From assembly GCA_022566155.1 (NCBI GenBank), contig JADFJS010000011.1, forward strand, positions 1 to 23,863: DNA of 23,863 nucleotides, written 5' to 3'. Numbering within the stretch: position 1 is the stretch's first letter; every line of letters starts with the position of its first letter. Positions 7,254 to 23,863 of this stretch are shown here, one piece after another. This stretch comes from Chloroflexota bacterium. Its GTDB lineage: Bacteria > Chloroflexota > Dehalococcoidia > Lucifugimonadales > UBA3495. A program made the position numbers and the translations under genes. The notes beneath the pieces were generated by a model, which saw only the letters and a program-made list of their open reading frames with translations, was not told where the DNA came from and searched no databases.

Positions 7254-7712
7254 ATGGCGTGGCGAGACACCTTGGGCAGGCTGCGGGAAGAGCTGGCCGA
7301 TGTGCGGGCGGAACGGCAGCGGCAGGCCGCCGCCGATGAAGCCGAGATCCAGCATCAACGGGAAGAGTTGTCCAAGCTGGTCACTTCCTTGGAGATCAAC
7401 CAATTGCTCAACGAGATGAAAGCCACCCTGCTGAACGGCCAGGGGGAACTAGAAACCATCATCTCTTGGGAAGCACCGGCCGACGGCGACGATGAAGACA
7501 TTAACGACCGTGACGATTCCGAAGAGGAAGAGGGCGACCTCATTGCCAATATATTGATATGGGATGAGGCCGGTGAACGGGAGATCGCGGTGGACCTTGG
7601 GTCGAGTGAAGATGGGACCTACCTCCAGGTTAACGGCGTGGACATTCGCCTGGAGGCCGAAGCCCTGGAGCAGGCGCTGGTGGAGGCTTTCCGCGATGAA
7701 TTGGAGCTGTGA
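7254..7712 (+). CDS. hypothetical acidic protein (predicted coiled-coil N-terminus, D/E-rich middle)
   Basis: 152-aa ORF with a GGGGAGG Shine-Dalgarno 7 nt upstream of the ATG. No recognisable family. Lies between purD and purE. Confidence 0.55.
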   Translation: MAWRDTLGRLREELADVRAERQRQAAADEAEIQHQREELSKLVTSLEINQLLNEMKATLLNGQGELETIISWEAPADGDDEDINDRDDSEEEEGDLIANILIWDEAGEREIAVDLGSSEDGTYLQVNGVDIRLEAEALEQALVEAFRDELEL

Positions 7713-13289: not shown

Positions 13290-13609
13290 CGGCGCTCGCG
13301 GACCCCATAGGCAACCGGGGTATTGCGGCTCATCCTTGGGCAATGGCGTCGCGTGTGTCGTTCCGGCGAAAGCCGAAATCCAGAGACGTAGGCTTCTATG
13401 GGACGTTCGCCCAAACTGCGGCGTTCGCCCAGACAAGGAAATCCGCGCCTATCCGCCGTAGGCAGACGGCCTACGCCGGAACGACGAGGGAAGTTCGCCG
13501 GGGGCACAGCCGCGACGCTCACTATTTCAATCGCCAGATTCGGATCAGCACGAATGGGAGCGCATCCGCCTGCATTCAAGCCGCTGCGGCCGGCGGCGCA
13601 TCCCCGGCG

Positions 13610-13638
13610 TTGACAGTAACAAGTGCCCCCACTACACT
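13610..13638 (+). promoter_or_regulatory. sigma70-like promoter TTGACA-N17-TACACT for gene A
   Basis: Consensus -35 at 13610-13615, a 17-nt spacer and TACACT at 13633-13638. It lies inside the track's extended ORF 13343.., which argues that extension is not coding. Confidence 0.5.
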
Positions 13639-13705
13639 CGTATTTAGCCCTTTGATTGACCAATACCGTGCAGCGTCCCGGGACGTTGCGGCGGGAGACG
13701 TTGTG

Positions 13706-16207
13706 ATGCCAAGCTGCCCAGCGTGTCAAACAGAGGTGCAGGCGGACTCGAGGTTCTGCCCCGAATGCGGCCACGCCCTGTCTGCCCCGCCTGCCGGCGC
13801 CGCACAGCCGGCGCAACCGTTTCCGCCTGCCCAGGCCGGGAAGCCGGAAGCAACTTCTTTGCCTGCCGAGGCCGAGGAGTCGGCTGAAAGATACCTGCCT
13901 GCCGACGTGCTGGCCCGGCGGATTCAGCCCCGGGAGATGCAGGGCCTCTTCTCCAAGACCCTGGTCATCGAGGAGGGTTATGAGGCGCTCCTCTTGCTGG
14001 GAGGAAGGCTGGACACCACCCTGACGCCTGGGAAGCACTCCATGGGGAATTTTCTATCTTCCCGGACCAGGGACACAACCGTCGTCCTGTTCCGAACCTC
14101 CGACGCGACCCTGAACACCTCCATCGAGCGGGTGTTCACCTCCGATCCGCTGCCCCTGAGCCTGGATTTGCGCATGGTCCTGAAGATCGAGCAGCCCTTG
14201 CGCCTCTGGAGCAACCTGGCGTTGGGCGCCGACTCCTACTCCACGCGCAACCTGGCCGCCGCCCTCTATCCTCTGGCTGAAGAAGGGTGCGAATATTTTT
14301 TCAAGTCTCGCAAGATGCGGGACCTGGACGCCAATCAGAGCACGCGCCAGGAGATAGAACTTGCTTTGGCCTCTCATCTGGAACAGCCCCTGTCCCGGTG
14401 GGGGCTGCGGCTAGTGTCCGCGCAGGCACTGGGGTTAAGGAGCGAGGCCTGGGACGAAATCAGCAAGTCCCGCATAGAGTACGCGGTGTCTGCCTCCCGG
14501 GAGGAGGCCGCACTGGAAGGACGCAAACGTCTCTTCGACGTCCACCAGGAATCGGACATACAAACCATGGCCGAGGAGACATTGGAAGTAGCCGGCGTGG
14601 AGAAGAGGGTAGCCCTCTGGGAACGCATGCGCCAAGCCCTGCTGTCCAATGCCAAGGGCGAGATTCAGTCCCAGGCGGAACTGGAGGACGTGGTCCGCCA
14701 GGCGGATCGGGACCTGCTCCTTAAAGATGATGAACACCAGTCCTTGATTAAGGCCATGTCCGAAGCCGGGGAGGACCATGAGAAGGCCCGCGCCTTCGTT
14801 CTGCGGCGGGTTGAGGCCGAGGGCGAGCACGAGCTGCAGAAACTGGACCTGTGGCACCAATACGGATTGGGCCAGGAGCGGCTGAATTGGGAGATATCCA
14901 CGGCGCGCCAGGAGATGGAGGGCCGCTGGGAGCTGGAGCTTCGGCGCCTGGACCTGCAGATAACCGGACAGCAGAGAGAAGCGGATTTTCGCCGCCAGCA
15001 GGAGGAAGCAGACCAGGATACCGCGCGCAGCAGGCAGTTGGAGAACGCCAGGACCACCGCGGCCATTGGCGACATAGAGCGGGACCAGGACCAGAAAGAC
15101 GCCGATCTCGGCATGAACCTATACAACCAGTACCGGGCTGCTCGGCGGGAGGATGAGATTGCCCGCCGACAGGCCGAGATCGATGCAGAGGAGAGAAGGC
15201 AGAACTTGACCCTGCAGGCGGAGAGCCAGCGGGTGGAGCTACGCCTGAGGGAATCGCAGCAGCAGCACCGTAGCGAGTTGGAGCGCATCGATGCCCTGTC
15301 CAACTTAGGGATCGAGACCCTGATCGCCGTATCTGGAGCCGAGCAGAGCCAGATGCTGGCCCAACTGGCCCGCACCCGTGCGCTGTCCGGCTGCTCTCCT
15401 GAGCAGATCCTGGCCATGCAGGCCCACGAGAGCCCCCAGGTAGCCGACGCCCTCAAGGAGATGCTCACCGCCACGGCCGCTTCCGGCCAGCTGGAGCAGT
15501 ATGAACGTTTGGTGACCGAGCTCAAGGATAGCGCCAGAATGAGCCGGGAGGACTACCAGCAGAACATGGTCACCATGAACCAGATGTTCAATAAAGCCCT
15601 GGACAGCGTCAAGGATACTGCCGTGGCTTTCAGCTCCGTCCCGGCAACCGTCGCCGCGCCACCACCGCCGGACCTGAGGTCCCACACCGCCCCGGATGGT
15701 ACCGTCACCCTGCTATTCAGCGATATCGAGGGCTCCACCGCCATGTTCGACAGGCTGGGCGACCTGCGTGCCCAGGAGGTCCTTCATATCCACAACGACA
15801 TCTTCCGCCAGAGGTTAGAGTCCTTCGACGGCCATGAGGTCAAGTCCATGGGCGACGGTTTCATGCTGGCATTCTCCAGCGCCCGAGACGGGATCCAGTG
15901 CTCCATCGCGGTCCAACGGGCCTTCGCCGCCCACAATAGCCAGGAAGCAAACGAGCCAATCATGGTGCGCATGGGTCTCCACACCGGAGAAGCCATAAAG
16001 GAGAATCAGGACTATTTCGGCAGGAACGTGATCCTGGCGGCGCGTATCTCGGCCAAAGGCAAAGGCGGGGAGATCCTGGTGTCTTCACTGGTCAAGGAGT
16101 TGACCGAAAGCGCGGGGGACATACCTTTCGACGAAGGACGTGACGTGGAGCTTAAAGGACTGGCCGGTGTCACCCGCATCTACCCGGTACACTGGGAAAA
16201 GCCCTGA
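13706..16207 (+). CDS. Multidomain protein A: double zinc ribbon + SPFH/band-7 domain + flotillin-like coiled coil + class III adenylate cyclase
   Basis: ATG 13706 follows a GGGAG at 8 nt. N-terminus MPSCPACQTEVQADSRFCPECGH (two CxxC pairs), then a P/A-rich linker. SPFH N-terminal strands LVIEEGYEALLLLGGRLDTTLTPGKH. An E/R/Q-rich coiled coil of about 400 aa. C-terminal cyclase homology domain (CHD, class III nucleotidyl cyclase): LLFSDIEGSTAMFDRLGD, VKSMGDGFMLAF, QDYFGRNVILAARISA. No TM segment. The track's earlier start (13343) gives an R-rich low-complexity extension that contains the promoter. Confidence 0.8.
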   Translation: MPSCPACQTEVQADSRFCPECGHALSAPPAGAAQPAQPFPPAQAGKPEATSLPAEAEESAERYLPADVLARRIQPREMQGLFSKTLVIEEGYEALLLLGGRLDTTLTPGKHSMGNFLSSRTRDTTVVLFRTSDATLNTSIERVFTSDPLPLSLDLRMVLKIEQPLRLWSNLALGADSYSTRNLAAALYPLAEEGCEYFFKSRKMRDLDANQSTRQEIELALASHLEQPLSRWGLRLVSAQALGLRSEAWDEISKSRIEYAVSASREEAALEGRKRLFDVHQESDIQTMAEETLEVAGVEKRVALWERMRQALLSNAKGEIQSQAELEDVVRQADRDLLLKDDEHQSLIKAMSEAGEDHEKARAFVLRRVEAEGEHELQKLDLWHQYGLGQERLNWEISTARQEMEGRWELELRRLDLQITGQQREADFRRQQEEADQDTARSRQLENARTTAAIGDIERDQDQKDADLGMNLYNQYRAARREDEIARRQAEIDAEERRQNLTLQAESQRVELRLRESQQQHRSELERIDALSNLGIETLIAVSGAEQSQMLAQLARTRALSGCSPEQILAMQAHESPQVADALKEMLTATAASGQLEQYERLVTELKDSARMSREDYQQNMVTMNQMFNKALDSVKDTAVAFSSVPATVAAPPPPDLRSHTAPDGTVTLLFSDIEGSTAMFDRLGDLRAQEVLHIHNDIFRQRLESFDGHEVKSMGDGFMLAFSSARDGIQCSIAVQRAFAAHNSQEANEPIMVRMGLHTGEAIKENQDYFGRNVILAARISAKGKGGEILVSSLVKELTESAGDIPFDEGRDVELKGLAGVTRIYPVHWEKP
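15697..16195 (+). other. class III nucleotidyl (adenylate) cyclase catalytic domain within gene A
   Basis: Metal-binding Asp residues (FSDIEGST, GDGFM), substrate Lys (VKSMGD) and Asp (QDYFG), and transition-state Asn/Arg (GRNVILAAR). Confidence 0.75.
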
Positions 16208-16630
16208 CCGGATACCACCGGGTCCAGCAATGCGCCGAGTGTAAGGAGCAACATAGTCACTGCTGCAACGGCCAACGTCCGACCATATCGCCCGCCAGTG
16301 TTCGGCTTGCTTAATAGAAAATCATCTGCTAGCATTTTGTGGTGGTGAACCAGGAATGCGCCGGATAACCGATTAAAAATCACGCATCCTGGACTTTCTC
16401 GATGAAGATTGAACCAATGAGGCAAAGAGGCTCGGTAGCTGCCTCCTGGCAGGAAACCCGGAGACTTACTCTGATCCGGTAGGATCTTACACCGTTCCCT
16501 GTCGAAACCAAGCCCGGCCAGTGACTGGAAATGTTTCCATTGCCGGACCAGCCTAGTTCAGCGCCGATACCGGCCAACGGCAATAGTAATCACCCAATCT
16601 CAGCAAGGACGGCCAGCAAGGAGGTGCGAT

Positions 16631-18190
16631 ATGACCCTGCGCTCCAATGATGCAGCCGGAGGCTCCGCCGCGACGGCCGACGTTGATGACGACCTGGTAT
16701 TGCTGGAAAGTACCCGCGTACCGGACCTTCCCGGATTTCTAAGCAGAAATGTGGTGCTCGGCCCAGAGGAAACCGGCTTCGTTACGGCCAACGGAAGCGT
16801 AGTCTCGGAGCTGAGCCGCGGTTCCAACAAGGTTGGGTGGTCCTTTTTCGGCTGGTTCGGAAGCAGCAACCGGGAGGTAGTCAAGCTGCACAACCGGCCG
16901 TTCCGGCTGCGCCTCTACTTCACCGGCCTGCTTTCCAAAGGATATGACACCCTGGACGCGATGATCCACCTCACCGTTTCGGTGAGGGACCCGTCCCTTT
17001 TCTACAGCAGAATGGGACGGGGCATGGTCCGCCTGTCGGCCAGCCAGTTGGCGAGCCGGGTCGCCGCCAGCATGGACGACCTGCTCCAGGTCAAGGTCAC
17101 GGAGATAGACGGCCAGGCCCTGCGCCACGACCGCCAGGTGCAACACCGTCTGACCACCGACCTGGAGCCCACGTTGAACCGGGCCCTGGACGAGCGGGGT
17201 GTAAACCTGGAAAGCGTGGACCTGGTCGCCTTCGACAATCCCGGCGAGGGAGACGAGCTCCTGAACGAGCTGGCCGATGCCGACAGGATGATAGCCAGCG
17301 GCACCAAGCCAGGACGTGAGGACATTCAGCGCACTCTGACCCGCCTGCAAGCCGCCGGCCTGGCCACTCCGGAGATGGCGGAGCGGGCCCAACTACTCTA
17401 CGATGGCGGCACCAACGATGCCTTCTTTGGCGTGATGAAAGACATCAGCCGGGCATCTAGGCGCCGGCTGGAGGCCCGGCTGGCCGACCGGTCGGAGCAA
17501 CTCACCCAGAAACTTAATGGCGACGAGACCCCAACATCCGCCGGCATGCTGTCGATGGAACGATTGTTGAAGTTCATCGGTCCGATATGCGCCATTGTGG
17601 GCCTGGTTTACAAGTTTGCATTTACGGGATTCGCCGGCGGTCCGATAGTGCTCATTGGTGGCCTGATCGGAGCCGTGGCCTTCGCCGGCGGATACCTTAT
17701 TATCCGCGCCAAGCGTATCCTGGGCATCGGGAAGGGGGATGAAATCGTGATCCGGCTGGACCGGTGGGCCAAGAAAAACAGCATGGCCACCGACGACTTG
17801 ATCCGCCGCCAGATGGGACGTGAGTTTTCCAACAGCTTGACCGACGTTAAGGATGCCAAGCTCGTGGCCTTCCGCGAGGACAAGAAAGCTGTCGCCAACG
17901 CCTTGAGCGACCTGGAAAACCGCATGGACCTTATGCGTACCGAGGTAGAGTCGGCCCCGGCCGCCTCCACCATAGTATCGGTGAAAAACTTTCCCACCCA
18001 GCGCATATCCCGGATGGTCAGCTTCGAAGAGGAGCTGCTGCGTCAAGCCAGAAACCTTTCCATCCGCTCCCAAACCGCGAAGGAGTCCCTTAGCGAAGAG
18101 GACGTGGAGGCGTTGCGGGTGGGCCTGGACAATTTCCACCGGTCATTCTCCAAGCGCCTTGGCCTGCTGGAAGGATTCAAGGAACTTTAA
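16631..18190 (+). CDS. Protein B: SPFH-like N-domain + internal hydrophobic hairpin + coiled-coil tail
   Basis: AGGAGG 7 nt upstream. N-terminus NVVLGPEETGFVTANGSVVSELSRGSN, paralogous to the SPFH start of A and C. A band-7-like core. A 45-aa hydrophobic stretch FIGPICAIVGLVYKFAFTGFAGGPIVLIGGLIGAVAFAGGYLII (two TM helices or a re-entrant hairpin). A C-terminal helical region. Confidence 0.75.
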   Translation: MTLRSNDAAGGSAATADVDDDLVLLESTRVPDLPGFLSRNVVLGPEETGFVTANGSVVSELSRGSNKVGWSFFGWFGSSNREVVKLHNRPFRLRLYFTGLLSKGYDTLDAMIHLTVSVRDPSLFYSRMGRGMVRLSASQLASRVAASMDDLLQVKVTEIDGQALRHDRQVQHRLTTDLEPTLNRALDERGVNLESVDLVAFDNPGEGDELLNELADADRMIASGTKPGREDIQRTLTRLQAAGLATPEMAERAQLLYDGGTNDAFFGVMKDISRASRRRLEARLADRSEQLTQKLNGDETPTSAGMLSMERLLKFIGPICAIVGLVYKFAFTGFAGGPIVLIGGLIGAVAFAGGYLIIRAKRILGIGKGDEIVIRLDRWAKKNSMATDDLIRRQMGREFSNSLTDVKDAKLVAFREDKKAVANALSDLENRMDLMRTEVESAPAASTIVSVKNFPTQRISRMVSFEEELLRQARNLSIRSQTAKESLSEEDVEALRVGLDNFHRSFSKRLGLLEGFKEL

Positions 18191-18243: not shown

Positions 18244-20199
18244 ATGCCTGCCAAATTATTCAACAATCGTTGGGAGCGGGAGCCGGATGATTTCGCGGCC
18301 GTGTTGAGCGAGAGGGATCTGGCCGGCTTCACTACCAAGAACATCGTCATAGAAGAAGGCACCATGGGCCTCCTTCTGGTCCAGGGCCGCTTCGACCGAA
18401 GGCTGGACCCCGGCGAGCACGCTTTGGAAGGTGGCCTTGGGGCCATCTTTGTGGGCCGTGAGAGAAAGATCGTGGTCCTGGTCAGCCTAGGCGACGCTAT
18501 GCTGCACATCACCCTGCCGCGCCTATTGACCCGAGACCCGGTTCCCTTTGGCGTACAGGTGGCGCTTACCCTGAGATTCAATCCGGGGCGGGAAGCCATA
18601 TTTCTCAGCAACTTTATGTCGGGTAAGGAGTCCCTCACCACCCACGACCTGCGGAACCTGGTCTACTCCGAGATCAACGAGGCCGCCCAGGCTTGGGCCG
18701 GTGGCCACACCATCAGGGAATTGGGCGAAAATATGGCCCTTCGGGACGAGATGGCCCTCGCCCTCGAGGCCCACATCAGGCCGCTGCTGGACCGCTACGG
18801 CCTCACCTTTGGCCGCCTGGAGGTCCGGGATTTCAAGTCGGAGATCTTGGACCGGTCCGTGAACCAGCGGGTGGAAACCTCCCTCCAGGTTACCAAGGAG
18901 CAGGCCGAGTTGGAGGGCCGCAAGAGGTTCTTCGACATCGCCGTGGAGACGGACATCCAAGACGTCACCGAAGAGACCCAGAAGGTGGCCACCTACGAGA
19001 AGCGGATCCTGTTATGGCAGCGCATGCAGCGAGCGGCGAACCAGGAGCAGATTGACAAGATAAGCTCCGAACAGGACCTGACCGACTTCATGCGCCAGAC
19101 CGACCGCGACAACCTGTTGAAAGAGGACGAGTTGGAGCGGTTCAAACAGGCGTTGGTGGACTCCGGTGAGGACCGGGAAAGGCTCCGCGCCCAGATCATC
19201 CGCCTAGCGGAAATGGAGGCCGAGTACGATTACAAACGCAAGGAGCTGTCCCAGCAGGCATCCCTGAGCCAGGAGCAGTTGGAAGGGGAGATGGGCCTGG
19301 AGCGGCTGCGCATGGAGGGCCAGCTTGAGACGGCGTTGAAGCGCACCGACCTGACCCTGGAGCGGGAACGCCGGGAGGCTGAGCAGGCGCGCAACGAGGA
19401 AGACCTGAACGCCGCCGCCCGCTACGAGCGAGAGCTGCGGGAGGCCAGGACCGGGGCCGAAGCACAGGGTATCGCCAGAGAGACCGCCCGGTTGGACGCC
19501 GAGCTGTCCCTGGCGCTGGAGGACCAGCGGGCGGCCCAGGAACGCCTGAATCAACAAGAGCAAGTCAGTATGACACTCCAAAGGCAGGCCGACGAGCAGG
19601 AACTGGCATTTAAGGCTGAGGAGGCCAAGCTAGACCTGCGCCTCCGAGAGCTTAGGGACCAACACCAGCGCGAGCTGGAGTCCATGCAATCCATGGACGC
19701 CGTCTCATTGCACACCTTGATTGCCGTGGCGCCGGGCGAGAAGGCGCCCTTGCTGGCGGAGTTGGCTCGAACCGAGGCACTCAAGAGCCTGTCGCCGGAC
19801 CAGATATTGGCCATCGCCGCCGAGAAGAGCCCCGAACTTGGCGGCGCTTTGGCTGAGATGGCAGCCCAGGGCGGCAGCGAACAGGCCAAGGCGATGTATG
19901 AACGTATCCTGGAAGAGCAGAAGGGCGCTGCCGCCGATATGCGGGAGAGCCAGCGGGAGATGACCGAAACCATGAAGGAGATGTTCAACAAGGCCCTGGA
20001 AACGCAGGCACAGGTGGCCTCGGCCTTCGCCCAAGGGATAGGACAGGCCGCCCAGAATCCAACGCCTGCCGCGGGCTCGGGTTCGCCCGGAGCAGCACCC
20101 CAGCGCGTGGTTGTCTGCCGGCGCTGCCTGACGGAGTCCGCCACGGGGACCAGGTACTGCCCCAACTGCGGCGACAGCATCATGAACGAACCTCGGTAG
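18244..20199 (+). CDS. Protein C: SPFH/band-7 + flotillin-like coiled coil + C-terminal double zinc ribbon (paralog of A without the cyclase)
   Basis: AGGAGG 6 nt upstream. IVIEEGTMGLLLVQGRFDRRLDPGEH aligns with A. QAELEGRKRFFDIAVETDIQDVTEETQKVATYEKRILLWQRMQRA aligns with A's EAALEGRKRLFDVHQESDIQTMAEETLEVAGVEKRVALWERMRQA. HTLIAVAPGEKAPLLAELARTEALKSLSPDQILAI aligns with A's ETLIAVSGAEQSQMLAQLARTRALSGCSPEQILAM. It ends with CRRCLTESATGTRYCPNCGD. Confidence 0.8.
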   Translation: MPAKLFNNRWEREPDDFAAVLSERDLAGFTTKNIVIEEGTMGLLLVQGRFDRRLDPGEHALEGGLGAIFVGRERKIVVLVSLGDAMLHITLPRLLTRDPVPFGVQVALTLRFNPGREAIFLSNFMSGKESLTTHDLRNLVYSEINEAAQAWAGGHTIRELGENMALRDEMALALEAHIRPLLDRYGLTFGRLEVRDFKSEILDRSVNQRVETSLQVTKEQAELEGRKRFFDIAVETDIQDVTEETQKVATYEKRILLWQRMQRAANQEQIDKISSEQDLTDFMRQTDRDNLLKEDELERFKQALVDSGEDRERLRAQIIRLAEMEAEYDYKRKELSQQASLSQEQLEGEMGLERLRMEGQLETALKRTDLTLERERREAEQARNEEDLNAAARYERELREARTGAEAQGIARETARLDAELSLALEDQRAAQERLNQQEQVSMTLQRQADEQELAFKAEEAKLDLRLRELRDQHQRELESMQSMDAVSLHTLIAVAPGEKAPLLAELARTEALKSLSPDQILAIAAEKSPELGGALAEMAAQGGSEQAKAMYERILEEQKGAAADMRESQREMTETMKEMFNKALETQAQVASAFAQGIGQAAQNPTPAAGSGSPGAAPQRVVVCRRCLTESATGTRYCPNCGDSIMNEPR

Positions 20200-20569: not shown

Positions 20570-23500
20570 TTGGCCGAAGACGCGGAAAAAAAGGAAGATC
20601 AGTACGGTATCGGCCCCGCCGGCGATCTGGAGTGGATTTCTCTGGAGCAGGCCGGCGTCCAGGCCATGCGCACCGCCAGAGAGGATCCGGGAAACTACGG
20701 CAGGACCTACTCAGGCACCCGCATGGTCTTCGACGTCACTGAGGAGGAGGACGGGGAAGACTACTACATCATCACCCTTTCCTTCCGCCCCGAGGGTGAC
20801 TTTTCCGGCACACCCGGCCAAGAACAGTTCTTCATAGAGAAAGAGGGCGCGGTTGCCGTTCGCCAGGTGCGCAGCCTGCCCGTCCCGGATCGAAGGCGCC
20901 GGTCCCGTGCCCCGGTCTACATTATTCTGGGTATCGGCGTTGTTATTGCTGGGGTGATTGGGGCCATGTTCGCCGCCGGCGTGCTACCGCCCGGCGCCGA
21001 CGGACCCACGCCCACACCCCCCATAGGACAGCAGGGCCAGGATGCCGTCCAGGTCACGGTGGAACTACTGCCAGGGCAGGCGGCTCGCTTGAACTCGCCG
21101 CAGGGTGATGTGACCGTAGACGTTAGCGCCGGGTCGGTAGACGGACCAATGGAACTTGTGTACCGGGAGCTGTCGCCGGACGAGATACCCGCAATGCCGG
21201 TGGGTTTCAACGCCTCGGACAAGCTATTCGATCTGTCCGTCACCGGTACCCAGGCCTCCACCACCGGCCGATTCTCATTTTCCAAGCCGGCCACCATTAC
21301 GGTGCGCCTCACCGCCGCACACGTAGAGCTTGCGGACAGAGAAGAGTCCAACCTGGTGATCCAGCACTTTGACGAAGCCAGGGGAGAGTGGACGGCTCTT
21401 CCAACTACCGTAGACTTCACCTTATTAACCGCTCGCGCCGAGGTGGAAAGTCTCAGCAAATTCGCCCTCACCATTAGGCAGCTCGGCGAGCAGTCCGTCA
21501 CAACCTCTCCCGGCGATACCTCAGCAGGGGATCAGATCAGTTTTGAGCTCACCGTCAACGGCAGGCAGGTGACCGGCCCAAGCGTAGACACCGCCAACGC
21601 CACCGTCGATGTCTCTCCGCCCCCCAACGCGCCGAATGACAGGTACATCACGGGGACGGAAGTGAAGCTTACGCTGTCCCCTGACAGTGGATACAAGGGC
21701 TCCTGCGATACTTCGTCCGTCTTCATGACATCGGACCTGGAAGTCGGCTGCTCCGTGACCAGGGAAAGCTACACGTTGAGCATTCTGGGCAGGCCGGTTA
21801 CGGGCCCAACGCTTGCCATGGCCGAAGGCACGGTAAACCTCTCGCCAGCCCCCAACGCACCTGGCAACCAGTACATTTCCGGTACCGTGGTGAACGTCAG
21901 CCTCTCGCCGGCCAGCGGATTCGAGGGCTCTTGCGACACCCTGGCGGTGACCATGACCTCCGACCGCAACGTTAGCTGCACCATGACCCAGCAGAGATTC
22001 ATCTTGACCATCGAGGGAGTCCAAGTGCTGGCAGGCCAGATAACGGTGGAAGTGGCCAACGGGGAGATAGACGTTAGCGAGGCCCCAGGATTCGATGGCA
22101 TGTACGCCGGCAACGTCGAGTTGTCTTTATTTGCTTACCCGTATTCCTCAGGCGCCACAATTTTTTGGAATGGGGTCGACACCGAGGGCTTCGAATCCGC
22201 CACCGTTCAGATGTCCAGGGACCGGTTTGTCACCGTGGACATCCTGCCGCTAGACCTCCACGGCGATTCCAGATTTGACGCCACGCCGATCTCGCCCGGC
22301 CTCACCTCGGGCGCCATCGATCCGCCCGGCGACCTGGACTTCTTCCAATTCTTCGCCCAGGCAGGCACCACCTACACGATCGAGGTGATTCCGGACACCC
22401 ACCCCGATACGTTACTCATCCTGTACGACTCCAGGGGCAACTGGCTGGATGAAGACGATGACGGGGGGCGAAGCGGTGGAGAACATCTGGAATGGACCGC
22501 CCCTTCCACCGGCGAGTACTACATCGAAGTCCGCTCCTTCGATCAGAGCTTCGATACAGGTTCCTATACCCTGTCACTGAGCACCGCGGATGACCACGGC
22601 GACTCCATTGATACCGCCACGTTCGTCTCCTTCGGCCTCACACCGGGCACCATTGGCCCGTCCGACGACGCGGACTATTTCGGCTTTTCGGCCCAGGCCG
22701 GCACTGCTTACCTCATAGAAGTGATCCTGGAAAGTCACCCCGATACGGTCCTGACTCTCTACGACTCCCGGGGCAACTGGTTAGATGAAGACGATGACGG
22801 GCGACGGGACGGTGGGGAATCAATCACTTGGACCGCCCTTTCCACCGGCGATTACTACGTGGCAGTCCGCTCCTTCTACCAGGAGTTCGATACAGGTTCC
22901 TATATCGTGTCGATCAATGTGGAGGATGACCACGGTGACTTTATCGGCACCGCCACGACCGTCTTCCTCGGCTTTACATCGGGCAGCATCGACCCGCCCG
23001 ACGACCTGGATTATTTCCGTTTCTCCGCCCAGGCCGGCACCACCTACCTGGTAGAGGTGATCTTGGAAAGTCACCCGGATACGGTCCTGACCCTTTATGA
23101 CTCCCGGGGCAACTGGATAGAGGAAGACGACGACGGGGGACGGGAAGGCGGAGAATCGATCACCTGGACCGCCACTACCAGCGGGAATTACTATTTCGAA
23201 GTCAGGTCCTTCGACCAAAGCTTCGACAGAGGCTCCTATACTCTATCGCTGAGTATTGCTGATGACCACGGCGACTCCATCGAGACGGCGACAGCCGTCT
23301 CCCTCGGCCTCACCTCGGGCGTCATCGACCCGTCCGGCGACTTGGACTATTTCCGGTTCTCCGCGCAGGCCGGCTCGACCTACACCATGGAGTTGATCTT
23401 GGGGACCCACCGCGACACGATGCTCACCCTTTACGACTCCAGGGGAAACTGGTTGGATGAAGACGATGACGGGAGACCGGAAGGTGGAGAGTTGTTGGAA

Positions 23501-23863
23501 TGGACCGCCCCACTGGCCGGCGATTATTACATCGAGGTCCGCTCCTACGACCCGAGCTTCGATATAGGCTCCTACACCCTGTCGCTGAACGTTGAAGTCC
23601 GTGCCGTCGACCGGCACGGCGATTCCATTCAGGCCGCCACGTCCATCGCCACAGGCATCAACTCGGGCGCAATTGACCCTTCCGACGACCTGGACTATTT
23701 CAGTTTCTTCGCCCAGGCAGGCACCACTTACATCATCGAGGTGATCCTGGGCTCCCACCCCGACACTCTGCTCACGATCTACGACTCCCGGGGCAGGTGG
23801 CAAGGTGAAAACGACGATGGGCGGCGCGGAGGCGGGGAACTAGTGGAATGGACCGCCCCGTCC
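20570..23863 (+). CDS. Type II membrane-anchored surface protein: ~105-aa cytoplasmic N-domain, 1 TM, Ig-like region, 2 divergent InlB-B-like repeats, at least 5 PPC (pre-peptidase C-terminal) domains. Partial, continues beyond the right edge
   Basis: Frame 2 is open from the TAA at 20522 to the window end. It is absent from the ORF track because it has no stop. N-terminus ...RRRRSRAP then TM VYIILGIGVVIAGVIGAMFAAGV (positive-inside, so the C-terminus is out). Two ~80-aa repeats with ATVDVSP..Y.GTEV.LTLSP.SGY.GSCDT..V.MTSD..V.C (divergent InlB B-repeat pattern). Five ~112-aa repeats with HGDS..TAT..G.TSG.IDP..DLDYF.F.AQAGTTY.IEVI...PDT.LTLYDSRGNWLDEDDDG...GGE...WTA..G.YY.EVRSFD.SFD.GSYTLSL (PPC pattern). 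Start TTG 20570 preferred over ATG 20666 because of promoter spacing and the Shine-Dalgarno. Confidence 0.75.
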   Translation, partial: MAEDAEKKEDQYGIGPAGDLEWISLEQAGVQAMRTAREDPGNYGRTYSGTRMVFDVTEEEDGEDYYIITLSFRPEGDFSGTPGQEQFFIEKEGAVAVRQVRSLPVPDRRRRSRAPVYIILGIGVVIAGVIGAMFAAGVLPPGADGPTPTPPIGQQGQDAVQVTVELLPGQAARLNSPQGDVTVDVSAGSVDGPMELVYRELSPDEIPAMPVGFNASDKLFDLSVTGTQASTTGRFSFSKPATITVRLTAAHVELADREESNLVIQHFDEARGEWTALPTTVDFTLLTARAEVESLSKFALTIRQLGEQSVTTSPGDTSAGDQISFELTVNGRQVTGPSVDTANATVDVSPPPNAPNDRYITGTEVKLTLSPDSGYKGSCDTSSVFMTSDLEVGCSVTRESYTLSILGRPVTGPTLAMAEGTVNLSPAPNAPGNQYISGTVVNVSLSPASGFEGSCDTLAVTMTSDRNVSCTMTQQRFILTIEGVQVLAGQITVEVANGEIDVSEAPGFDGMYAGNVELSLFAYPYSSGATIFWNGVDTEGFESATVQMSRDRFVTVDILPLDLHGDSRFDATPISPGLTSGAIDPPGDLDFFQFFAQAGTTYTIEVIPDTHPDTLLILYDSRGNWLDEDDDGGRSGGEHLEWTAPSTGEYYIEVRSFDQSFDTGSYTLSLSTADDHGDSIDTATFVSFGLTPGTIGPSDDADYFGFSAQAGTAYLIEVILESHPDTVLTLYDSRGNWLDEDDDGRRDGGESITWTALSTGDYYVAVRSFYQEFDTGSYIVSINVEDDHGDFIGTATTVFLGFTSGSIDPPDDLDYFRFSAQAGTTYLVEVILESHPDTVLTLYDSRGNWIEEDDDGGREGGESITWTATTSGNYYFEVRSFDQSFDRGSYTLSLSIADDHGDSIETATAVSLGLTSGVIDPSGDLDYFRFSAQAGSTYTMELILGTHRDTMLTLYDSRGNWLDEDDDGRPEGGELLEWTAPLAGDYYIEVRSYDPSFDIGSYTLSLNVEVRAVDRHGDSIQAATSIATGINSGAIDPSDDLDYFSFFAQAGTTYIIEVILGSHPDTLLTIYDSRGRWQGENDDGRRGGGELVEWTAPS
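21535..22005 (+). repeat. 2 x ~240-bp tandem coding repeat (InlB-B-like domains)
   Basis: The protein repeats ...VTGPSVDTANATVDVSPPPNAPNDRYITGTEVKLTLSPDSGYKGSCDTSSVFMTSDLEVGCSVT and ...VTGPTLAMAEGTVNLSPAPNAPGNQYISGTVVNVSLSPASGFEGSCDTLAVTMTSDRNVSCTMT. Partial DNA identity. Confidence 0.5.
22259..23863 (+). repeat. at least 5 x ~336-bp tandem coding repeats (PPC domains), truncated by the window end
   Basis: Unit starts near 22259, 22603, 22933, 23269 and 23617 (periods 330-347 bp). Each encodes a DDHGDS...SYTLSL unit. Long near-identical DNA stretches, e.g. ctttacgactcccggggcaactgg. Confidence 0.85.

Follow-up and report, generated by a model that had tools for sequence, protein, structure and literature searches.

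Complementary zinc ribbons on two neighboring SPFH paralogs of a marine Chloroflexota: probable reciprocal loss after duplication

Two homologous proteins encoded close together in the genome of a marine member of the Chloroflexota carry a zinc ribbon at opposite ends, one at its N terminus and the other at its C terminus. How such a complementary arrangement arose, and what it may say about an assembly built from the two proteins, is the question raised by the stretch of DNA analyzed here (the window; 23,863 nucleotides [nt], positions 1 to 23,863 of contig JADFJS010000011.1, assembly GCA_022566155.1). The proteins are the products of genes A and C, which are separated by gene B; all three genes lie on the plus strand in the order A, B, C, and their nearest homologs are found in metagenome-assembled genomes of SAR202 and other Chloroflexota. 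By profile and fold, the three products belong to the SPFH superfamily, B itself having no match to PF01145. A first-pass annotation of the sequence explained the pattern as domain shuffling, a swap of ribbons on an otherwise conserved scaffold. The distribution of ribbons in the wider family points instead to the duplication of an ancestor with ribbons at both ends, followed by reciprocal ribbon loss; A and C would be co-assembled in one cage, which B would tether to the membrane. This is the best explanation of the locus and is probably correct, although by no means secure.

From their sequences, A and C are true collinear paralogs. A BLASTP alignment of the two extends over 600 residues with 37% identity and 17 gaps (E = 6e-109), and since it spans the SPFH domain as well as the helical region, the similarity is not an artifact of low-complexity coiled coil. 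The first-pass annotation was therefore right in describing collinear cores, and also in the placement of the ribbons, which are found as Cys4 motifs at residues 4–21 of A and 625–642 of C. Its description of both as of the double-zinc-ribbon type does not hold. Each protein has a single set of four cysteines, the DZR profile (PF12773) is matched only at positions 26–45 of its 45 and below cut-off, and the double form occurs only at the N termini of relatives with ribbons at both ends. In a sample of ∼50 C orthologs and ∼40 A orthologs, the four cysteines are kept in every full-length C ortholog (60%–99% identity) and every full-length A ortholog. The cysteine columns are 90%–100% conserved compared with 0%–30% for the flanking linkers, which indicates that the ribbons are under selection, and both are predicted to bind zinc. 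Profile searches, proposed earlier as a check on the cysteine clusters, gave a divided answer. The ribbon of A passes the Pfam threshold for Zn_Ribbon_1 (PF13240; 26.3 bits, cut-off 25, E = 6e-6), whereas that of C stays under all Pfam cut-offs (best 15.8 bits; E = 0.025–0.3) but reaches 34.6 bits on a profile made from the C-terminal ribbons of its relatives, against 17.7 and 21.3 bits on two N-terminal profiles.

The relatives themselves show what the ancestral layout may have been. A scan of one genome per species with an A-/C-type protein profile returned 19 loci (individual loci and proteins are referred to below by L and P numbers). In Acidobacteriota, Anaerolineae, Planctomycetota, and a haloarchaeon, the gene is present as a single copy, and its product has a double, sometimes single, ribbon at the N terminus and a single ribbon at the C terminus. 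Ribbons at both ends were found in 12 of the 13 single-copy relatives of other phyla that were inspected, and the JGI protein P0061 has the same layout. A HMMER search of 1.84 billion cluster representatives (50% identity) yielded 1,460 relatives at E ≤ 1e-3 and 384 at E ≤ 1e-30. Among the best 150 matches, 113 were full-length-like and could be counted by architecture. A C-terminal ribbon is accompanied by two N-terminal ribbons in 47 of these, by one in 22, by three in one, and by none in 29; the proteins without a C-terminal ribbon have two N-terminal ribbons in two cases, one in four, and none in eight. Some of the calls of no N-terminal ribbon are possibly start-codon miscalls.

In a neighbor-joining tree of the core region, all proteins with only an N-terminal ribbon group with A in one clade, which is entirely devoid of C-terminal ribbons, and the SAR202-type proteins with only a C-terminal ribbon group with C in another, which is entirely devoid of N-terminal ribbons; the remainder are mostly both-ended. 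Bootstrap values, obtained with capped Kimura distances and a set restricted to core members, were 97 for the core A clade, 92 for the core C clade, and 72–90, varying with the taxon sample, for A and C together against the rest. As a raw count, uncorrected for phylogeny, 80 of the 112 representatives outside A and C are both-ended and none of the 32 inside, so ribbon position is informative for tracing the family, as had been anticipated in the first-pass annotation. In 11 of 12 cases, the C-terminal-ribbon profile gives the ribbons of the C clade 10–20 bits more than do the N-terminal profiles. At its other end, C begins with NNRWxRxPDDFA, which aligns to the segment of the relatives directly after their N-terminal ribbons (GNRWARR..DFA). 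At the level of sequence, then, C looks like a both-ended protein minus its N-terminal ribbons and A like one minus its C-terminal ribbon. The same complementary triad is present on a single contig in a deep-branching pair, in which P0208 (N-terminal ribbon only) and P0183 (C-terminal ribbon only) flank a B-like gene; on this evidence, the split is old and has been stably maintained.

Because the single-copy relatives are both-ended and the ribbon of C is positionally orthologous to their C-terminal one, the pattern is best read as differential retention after duplication. The ancestor would have had the layout zinc ribbon(s), SPFH domain, long helical region, zinc ribbon, and would have been duplicated in a Chloroflexota lineage. 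The copy leading to A would have kept an N-terminal ribbon and lost the C-terminal one, with some A proteins, that of the window included, later acquiring a Ma1120-like adenylyl cyclase at the freed end; the copy leading to C would have retained only the C-terminal ribbon. True domain shuffling, in which one ribbon module was moved between the termini of a conserved scaffold or was gained independently, would make the N-terminal ribbon of A and the C-terminal ribbon of C a single relocated element; it would suit the fact that the two are of one sequence type and align to each other (E = 5e-5). It would also suit the near-identical consensuses of the two N-terminal (N1 and N2) and the C-terminal ribbon profiles, and the several N-terminal ribbons of the A clade to which the C-terminal profile gives equal or higher scores (P0070 and P0076, for example). 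However, no relocation is needed when most relatives already have both ribbon positions, the C-clade ribbons match the C-terminal profile specifically, with the VVVC flank included, and the alignment of the N terminus of C indicates a simple truncation; shuffling is thus very unlikely. That the terminal cysteine clusters are chance or relic motifs rather than functional zinc ribbons is hardly credible. The failure of the C ribbon to reach any Pfam cut-off speaks for it, but all four cysteines are invariant beside nearly unconserved linkers, the A ribbon does pass, the family profile gives the ribbon of C 34.6 bits, and the motif is found in hundreds of relatives.

The freed end of A deserves a closer look. 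The mechanical open reading frame (ORF) of A opens at 13343 (13343–16207, 954 aa) but is inflated by a leader that is open in frame. The true start is almost certainly the ATG at 13706, judging by a GGGAGA 8 nt upstream, by the MPxCPxC with which all orthologs begin, and by the promoter-like site at 13610–13638. The region 13290–13705 is then a 416-nt leader or intergenic region, open in the frame of A back to 13343. The ribbon is followed by a Pro/Ala-rich linker of ∼45 aa. At the other end, the last 175 aa cover the full catalytic domain of Ma1120 (an enzymatically active adenylyl cyclase; PDB 4wp3) with ∼50% identity, occupying exactly the position of the linker and ribbon of C; the Pfam score is 69.2 bits for PF00211 (cut-off 21.9), and an NCBIfam scan of A matched the cyclase only. 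When aligned to Ma1120, the domain keeps the aspartate of FSDIEG, the lysine and aspartate of KSMGDGF, and the aspartate and N/R of DYFGRNV..AAR. The lysine and aspartate specify ATP (PMC4215837), and the domain is a complete class III adenylyl cyclase domain with its metal-binding and ATP-specifying residues intact. Orthologs with the same full architecture are 52%–99% identical to A. The cyclase is present in some A-type proteins and absent from many others. Such shorter forms might be fragments at contig ends, which is perhaps the case for some short contigs; at L007, the stop codon lies 360 nt before the end of the contig, and there the cyclase-less form is real. The A-type protein of L002 has neither ribbon nor cyclase.

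Gene B had, like the cyclase, been passed over by the first-pass annotation. Its product has no match in Pfam, NCBIfam, or PADLOC. In the AlphaFold2 (AF2) model of B, the strand order in residues 23–202 is the same as in C, and a Foldseek search with the model found HflK/C (7vhq, E = 9e-7) as the best match, together with prohibitin and stomatin. In L002, the ortholog of B shows sequence similarity to the SPFH regions of A and C (E = 2e-9 and 1.5e-7). Taken together, the model, the structural matches, and the similarity of this ortholog mark B as a divergent, third SPFH paralog. On PF01145, a B-like protein in L005 reaches 23.2 bits, just under the cut-off of 23.6, and the B ortholog P0170 carries the PF01145 annotation. 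B is co-conserved with A and C, and in other phyla a B-like gene immediately precedes the both-ended one. The maximal Kyte-Doolittle score over 19 residues is 2.25 for B, 1.56 for C, and 0.95 for A; no window in A or C attains 1.6, and hence neither has a hydrophobic segment.

For C, the Pfam match to Band_7 (PF01145; 37.1 bits, cut-off 23.6, E = 4e-9) agrees with an AF2 model (mean predicted local distance difference test score [pLDDT] 71.8) that has a β-rich SPFH domain (residues 16–198), helices (200–598), a disordered linker, and a ribbon hairpin, the last formed by short paired strands at residues 622–624 and 631–633 with a pLDDT of ∼76. In the Protein Data Bank (PDB), the closest structures to the model by Foldseek are flotillin (9bq2, E = 5.8e-10) and then HflK/C (7vhq, E = 7e-10), and erlin1/2, prohibitin, stomatin, QmcA, and the vault protein were also matched, all of them cage-forming; the E values for flotillin, HflK/C, erlin, prohibitin, stomatin, and QmcA range from 6e-10 to 1e-8. 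The features of the three genes and their surroundings are collected in Table 1.

Table 1. Positions of the genes, domains, and sequence elements of the A-B-C locus in the window
Feature	Position	Strand	Description and basis
Promoter-like TTGACA-17-TACACT upstream of A	13610–13638	+	Consensus scan, 10/12 matches; pattern match only
Gene A, 833 aa	13706–16207	+	Zinc ribbon, Pro/Ala-rich linker, SPFH, ∼400-aa helical region, class III adenylyl cyclase
N-terminal Cys4 zinc ribbon of A (predicted), CPAC-x10-CPEC	13715–13768	+	Pfam PF13240 and cysteine conservation in orthologs
SPFH/Band 7 domain of A	13964–14425	+	Pfam PF01145, E = 4e-9, 37.2 bits, cut-off 23.6
Class III nucleotidyl cyclase domain of A, Ma1120-like	15695–16171	+	Pfam PF00211, E = 4e-19; PDB 4wp3, E = 4e-43
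Promoter-like block TTGCTT-17-TAGCAT in A-B spacer	16307–16335	+	TGC 5′ of block
Gene B, 519 aa	16631–18190	+	Divergent SPFH (aa 23–202), helices, hydrophobic hairpin (aa 312–360), C-terminal helices
Hydrophobic hairpin of B	17564–17710	+	Only membrane-anchor candidate among A, B, and C
Gene C, 651 aa	18244–20199	+	SPFH, helical region, variable linker, C-terminal zinc ribbon
C-terminal Cys4 zinc ribbon of C (predicted), CRRC-x10-CPNC	20116–20169	+	Invariant cysteines in full-length orthologs; C-terminal-ribbon profile
Downstream gene, runs past window end	20570–23863	+	Long PPC-repeat protein; Pfam PPC, E = 1e-36

The geometry of known SPFH cages suggests how the two ribbons might be placed in an assembly. 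In the solved structures, the N-terminal SPFH domains are at the wide, membrane-bound end and the C termini at the narrow end, and in the flotillin cage, 22 copies of Flot1 alternate with 22 of Flot2, the only difference between the two being a C-terminal appendage on the narrow side (PMC11260169). By analogy, A and C would be alternating subunits of a single ring or cage of the flotillin or HflK/C type, with the hydrophobic hairpin of B tethering it to the membrane. Flexible linkers would suspend the ribbons of A at the wide rim near the membrane, and those of C would alternate with the cyclase domains of A at the narrow apex, an arrangement consistent with the proposal of the first-pass annotation that the ribbons mark opposite ends of an assembly. 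The ribbons themselves would most likely be small protein-docking modules. Since the active sites of class III cyclases form across a dimer interface, crowding of these domains at the apex could link production of cyclic AMP (cAMP) to assembly of the cage, which would thereby control its synthesis. Co-assembly, tethering by B, binding by the ribbons, and assembly-dependent cyclase activity are all inferred.

Whether A and C share one assembly was weighed against several other readings of the locus. The two could form separate homo-oligomeric assemblies with different partners, A as a cAMP-signaling scaffold and C together with B as a membrane scaffold, and the opposite placement of their ribbons would then correspond to different clients. 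A has a promoter-like site of its own and the A-B spacer holds a conserved promoter-like block, while B and C are only 53 nt apart; the A-type proteins vary, with or without a cyclase and even without a ribbon in L002; and many SPFH proteins, such as stomatin and QmcA, are homo-oligomeric. Set against this, the three genes have kept their adjacency and order in lineages only ∼30%–45% identical to one another. Measured between fixed anchor columns, the helical regions of A and C are each 401 residues long in 10 of 11 genome pairs (398 versus 401 in the eleventh), compared with 288–591 residues in the rest of the family; such equality would be expected of helices packed next to each other in one wall and supports co-assembly indirectly. 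Moreover, the paralog pairs with solved structures, HflK/C, Flot1/2, PHB1/2, and erlin1/2, are all heteromeric, adjacent SPFH paralogs among them. Separate assemblies thus appear rather unlikely. A more ambitious version of co-assembly, in which A, B, and C form one membrane-tethered heteromeric cage, assembly or the docking of clients dimerizes the cyclases so that the cage becomes a cAMP-emitting sensor, and the ribbons at rim and apex dock partners, is unlikely; on that reading, the candidates for docking are the adjacent membrane proteins tagged with ribbons or with the N-terminal domain described below, or the E1, E2, and JAB components of related loci. Finally, the triad might be a Pycsar-type antiphage system, with the cyclase of A making a cyclic nucleotide upon infection and B acting as the membrane effector. 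The cyclase does give weak, partial PADLOC matches to PycC (E = 1.5e-5 to 1.5e-3), B has its hydrophobic hairpin, and four related loci have E2-CBASS-like, E1, and JAB genes close to the triad. Yet the cyclase is far closer to the housekeeping-type Ma1120 and keeps the adenine-specifying lysine and aspartate, B and C have no PADLOC match, the locus is embedded in conserved core-genome synteny with purine biosynthesis genes, and many A-types have no cyclase at all. The PycC matches were set aside as generic cyclase similarity, and an antiphage role is highly improbable.

The case for reciprocal loss and co-assembly has its own weak points. The N-terminal ribbon of A scores alike on all three ribbon profiles and could correspond to either the first or the second N-terminal ribbon of the relatives. 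Deep-branching members (P0063, P0192, P0199, P0202, P0208, P0209, and P0296) have unstable membership and shift between the A and C clades in bootstrap replicates. The 29 representatives outside the A and C clades that also lack an N-terminal ribbon imply that loss is frequent and need not reflect heteromerization. The tree is distance-based and unrooted, with a midpoint root only, and a true root on the A branch would allow a single gain of the C-terminal ribbon in place of its loss in A. As for the assembly, the profile with which helical lengths were counted was built from A/C-type sequences, and the matching lengths may be due in part to low rates of insertion and deletion in this lineage. 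The monomer models are of medium confidence (pLDDT ∼71, predicted template-modeling score ∼0.4). Lastly, A may be expressed apart from B and C, as suggested by the 423-nt spacer with its conserved promoter-like block.

That spacer (16208–16630) is unusually long, and its G+C content is below that of its surroundings, the window as a whole being at ∼0.6 throughout. In its alignment with the A-B spacers of L003 and L022, strong conservation is confined to the block at 16307–16335. A search of the whole window with Rfam at gathering thresholds, which included the leader of A and the A-B spacer, returned no matches. Upstream of A are purine-biosynthesis and housekeeping genes (pgk, guaA, purD, purE, purB, and purC, together with genes for a DUF3105 protein and a BNR-repeat protein), and the order purB-purC-DUF3105-purS-A-B-C is kept in a relative whose A, B, and C are ∼60%–70% identical to those of the window. 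A 152-aa ORF at 7254–7712, between purD and purE, had no match in the Pfam scan.

Downstream of C, the last gene of the window encodes a conserved N-terminal domain of ∼100 aa (20570–20893), a transmembrane (TM) segment, and PPC and Y_Y_Y repeats. The domain has no Pfam match and follows the pattern ..YISLEQAR..A...A...PG.YGR....MAFEV...E.EDYY.ITLS.RP.G.F.G..G.EQF.IEKEG. It recurs in genes flanking the A-B-C triad in L002, L003, L004, L007, L022, and L024, with one to three such genes in each triad locus inspected. Their extracytoplasmic parts vary, from the PPC repeats of the window to RDD, PsbP/DcrB, or other domains elsewhere. Proteins with this domain may be clients or anchors of the SPFH assembly; that the downstream gene belongs to the system is inferred from its neighborhood only.

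Other proteins ending in a similar Cys4 ribbon are encoded beside the both-ended gene. These are PQQ β-propellers in L001 (28–2697, with a ribbon also at the start) and L018 (1349–3913) and CARDB/PKD proteins in L017 (565–3084 and 4348–6657); within these three loci, the ribbon seems to serve as a common tag. Classical AAA ATPases, for which the closest PDB entries are the D2 domain of Cdc48 and katanin, recur a short distance upstream, within a few genes of the both-ended one (L005, 2469–3638; L008, 2864–4084; L011, 749–1852 and 3878–5092), and another in L024 (2180–3406) lies upstream of the deep-branching triad. Small unannotated proteins beside the acidobacterial AAA ATPases were considered as relatives of PspA or ESCRT-III and were dropped, as sequence searches gave no PDB matches. 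Some both-ended loci also contain Ser/Thr kinase, VWA, CHAT, and RT genes. ThiF-type E1 and JAB genes are found within a few kilobases of the triad in L003 (11025–13278), L022 (13749–17003), L024 (13508–16653), and L026 (1–2062), and L022 and L024 carry in addition an E2-CBASS-like gene. The triad may thus be linked to a bacterial ubiquitin-like conjugation system. Of all these candidate partners, none is encoded inside the window.

The cages formed by SPFH proteins (flotillin, prohibitin, HflK/C, stomatin, and erlin) have only recently been resolved. The locus described here belongs to a large, unnamed family of soluble SPFH-coiled-coil proteins with zinc ribbons at both poles, and it offers a natural experiment in which duplication split the ribbon positions over two subunits and an adenylyl cyclase was placed on the freed end. 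If A and C do co-assemble, they would provide a bacterial parallel to Flot1 and Flot2 with terminal modules that are easily mutated and, as far as the literature search went, the first cyclase built into an SPFH scaffold. What the poles of an SPFH cage bind, and whether assembly is read out as a signal, would then become testable. If they do not, the locus still illustrates reciprocal domain loss clearly, and it can serve as a marker of the family's history in Chloroflexota.

Among the closest known systems is flotillin (9bq2; PMC11260169), in which an SPFH domain is likewise followed by a very long helical wall with no true N-terminal TM helix, and in which two paralogs that differ only in a C-terminal appendage alternate, as A and C would. 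Identity to flotillin is only ∼15%–17%, however, neither A nor C matches the Pfam Flot domain at E ≤ 1, and the helical region of A and C is longer (∼400 aa) and broken into several helices. Flotillins lack terminal zinc ribbons, a cyclase fusion, and a third, hairpin-bearing paralog, and they bind the membrane through hydrophobic residues and lipidation of SPFH1, unlike in the model proposed for A, B, and C. HflK and HflC (7vhq and 7wi3) are similar in being encoded by adjacent, paralogous bacterial genes, whose products form an alternating cage of 12 + 12 subunits. In contrast to A and C, each has an N-terminal TM helix and a short wall helix, they face the periplasm and enclose FtsH, and they have no ribbons; the NCBIfam models of HflK and HflC found no match in A, B, or C. 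Ma1120 of Mycobacterium avium (4wp3) is a stand-alone minimal cyclase, whereas in A the cyclase domain is appended to the C terminus of an SPFH scaffold. Full-text searches of the literature turned up no report of an SPFH-cyclase fusion; the cyclases mentioned there together with SPFH proteins are two-hybrid reagents.

A precedent for the proposed tethering of soluble A and C by B is provided by YdjI of Bacillus subtilis, a soluble SPFH protein encoded with membrane proteins. Its COG is described as SPFH with a C-terminal zinc ribbon, and YdjG starts with a zinc ribbon. YdjI requires YdjG and YdjH, membrane proteins of the same operon, to reach the membrane (PMC8581546). It differs in belonging to PF13421 (Band_7_1), which was not among the Pfam matches at E ≤ 1, in its size of ∼320 aa without the 400-aa helical region, and in its link to PspA, which is absent from the window. 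Neither the both-ended family, nor the partition of ribbons between paralogs, nor the hairpin-bearing third paralog was found described in the literature, and in the searchable part of it only one study mentions SPFH, coiled coil, and zinc ribbon together. There, SPFH-coiled-coil-zinc-ribbon proteins were noted in archaeal ESCRT-linked "Meth_adaptin" loci with a Vps4-type AAA ATPase (Makarova et al., 2024, PMC10936438). A split of the ribbon between paralogs and a cyclase fusion are not described for the archaeal family (PMC10936438), and the window has no AAA ATPase, ESCRT-III, or ubiquitin-like genes. By description alone, the three-part architecture is the same, and the likeness extends to the surroundings: relatives of A and C adjoin AAA ATPases, and four triad loci adjoin E1/E2/JAB genes. 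Should the ribbons indeed dock components of the E1/E2/JAB machinery, this would parallel the link of the archaeal SPFH-zinc-ribbon proteins to the ESCRT and ubiquitin systems.

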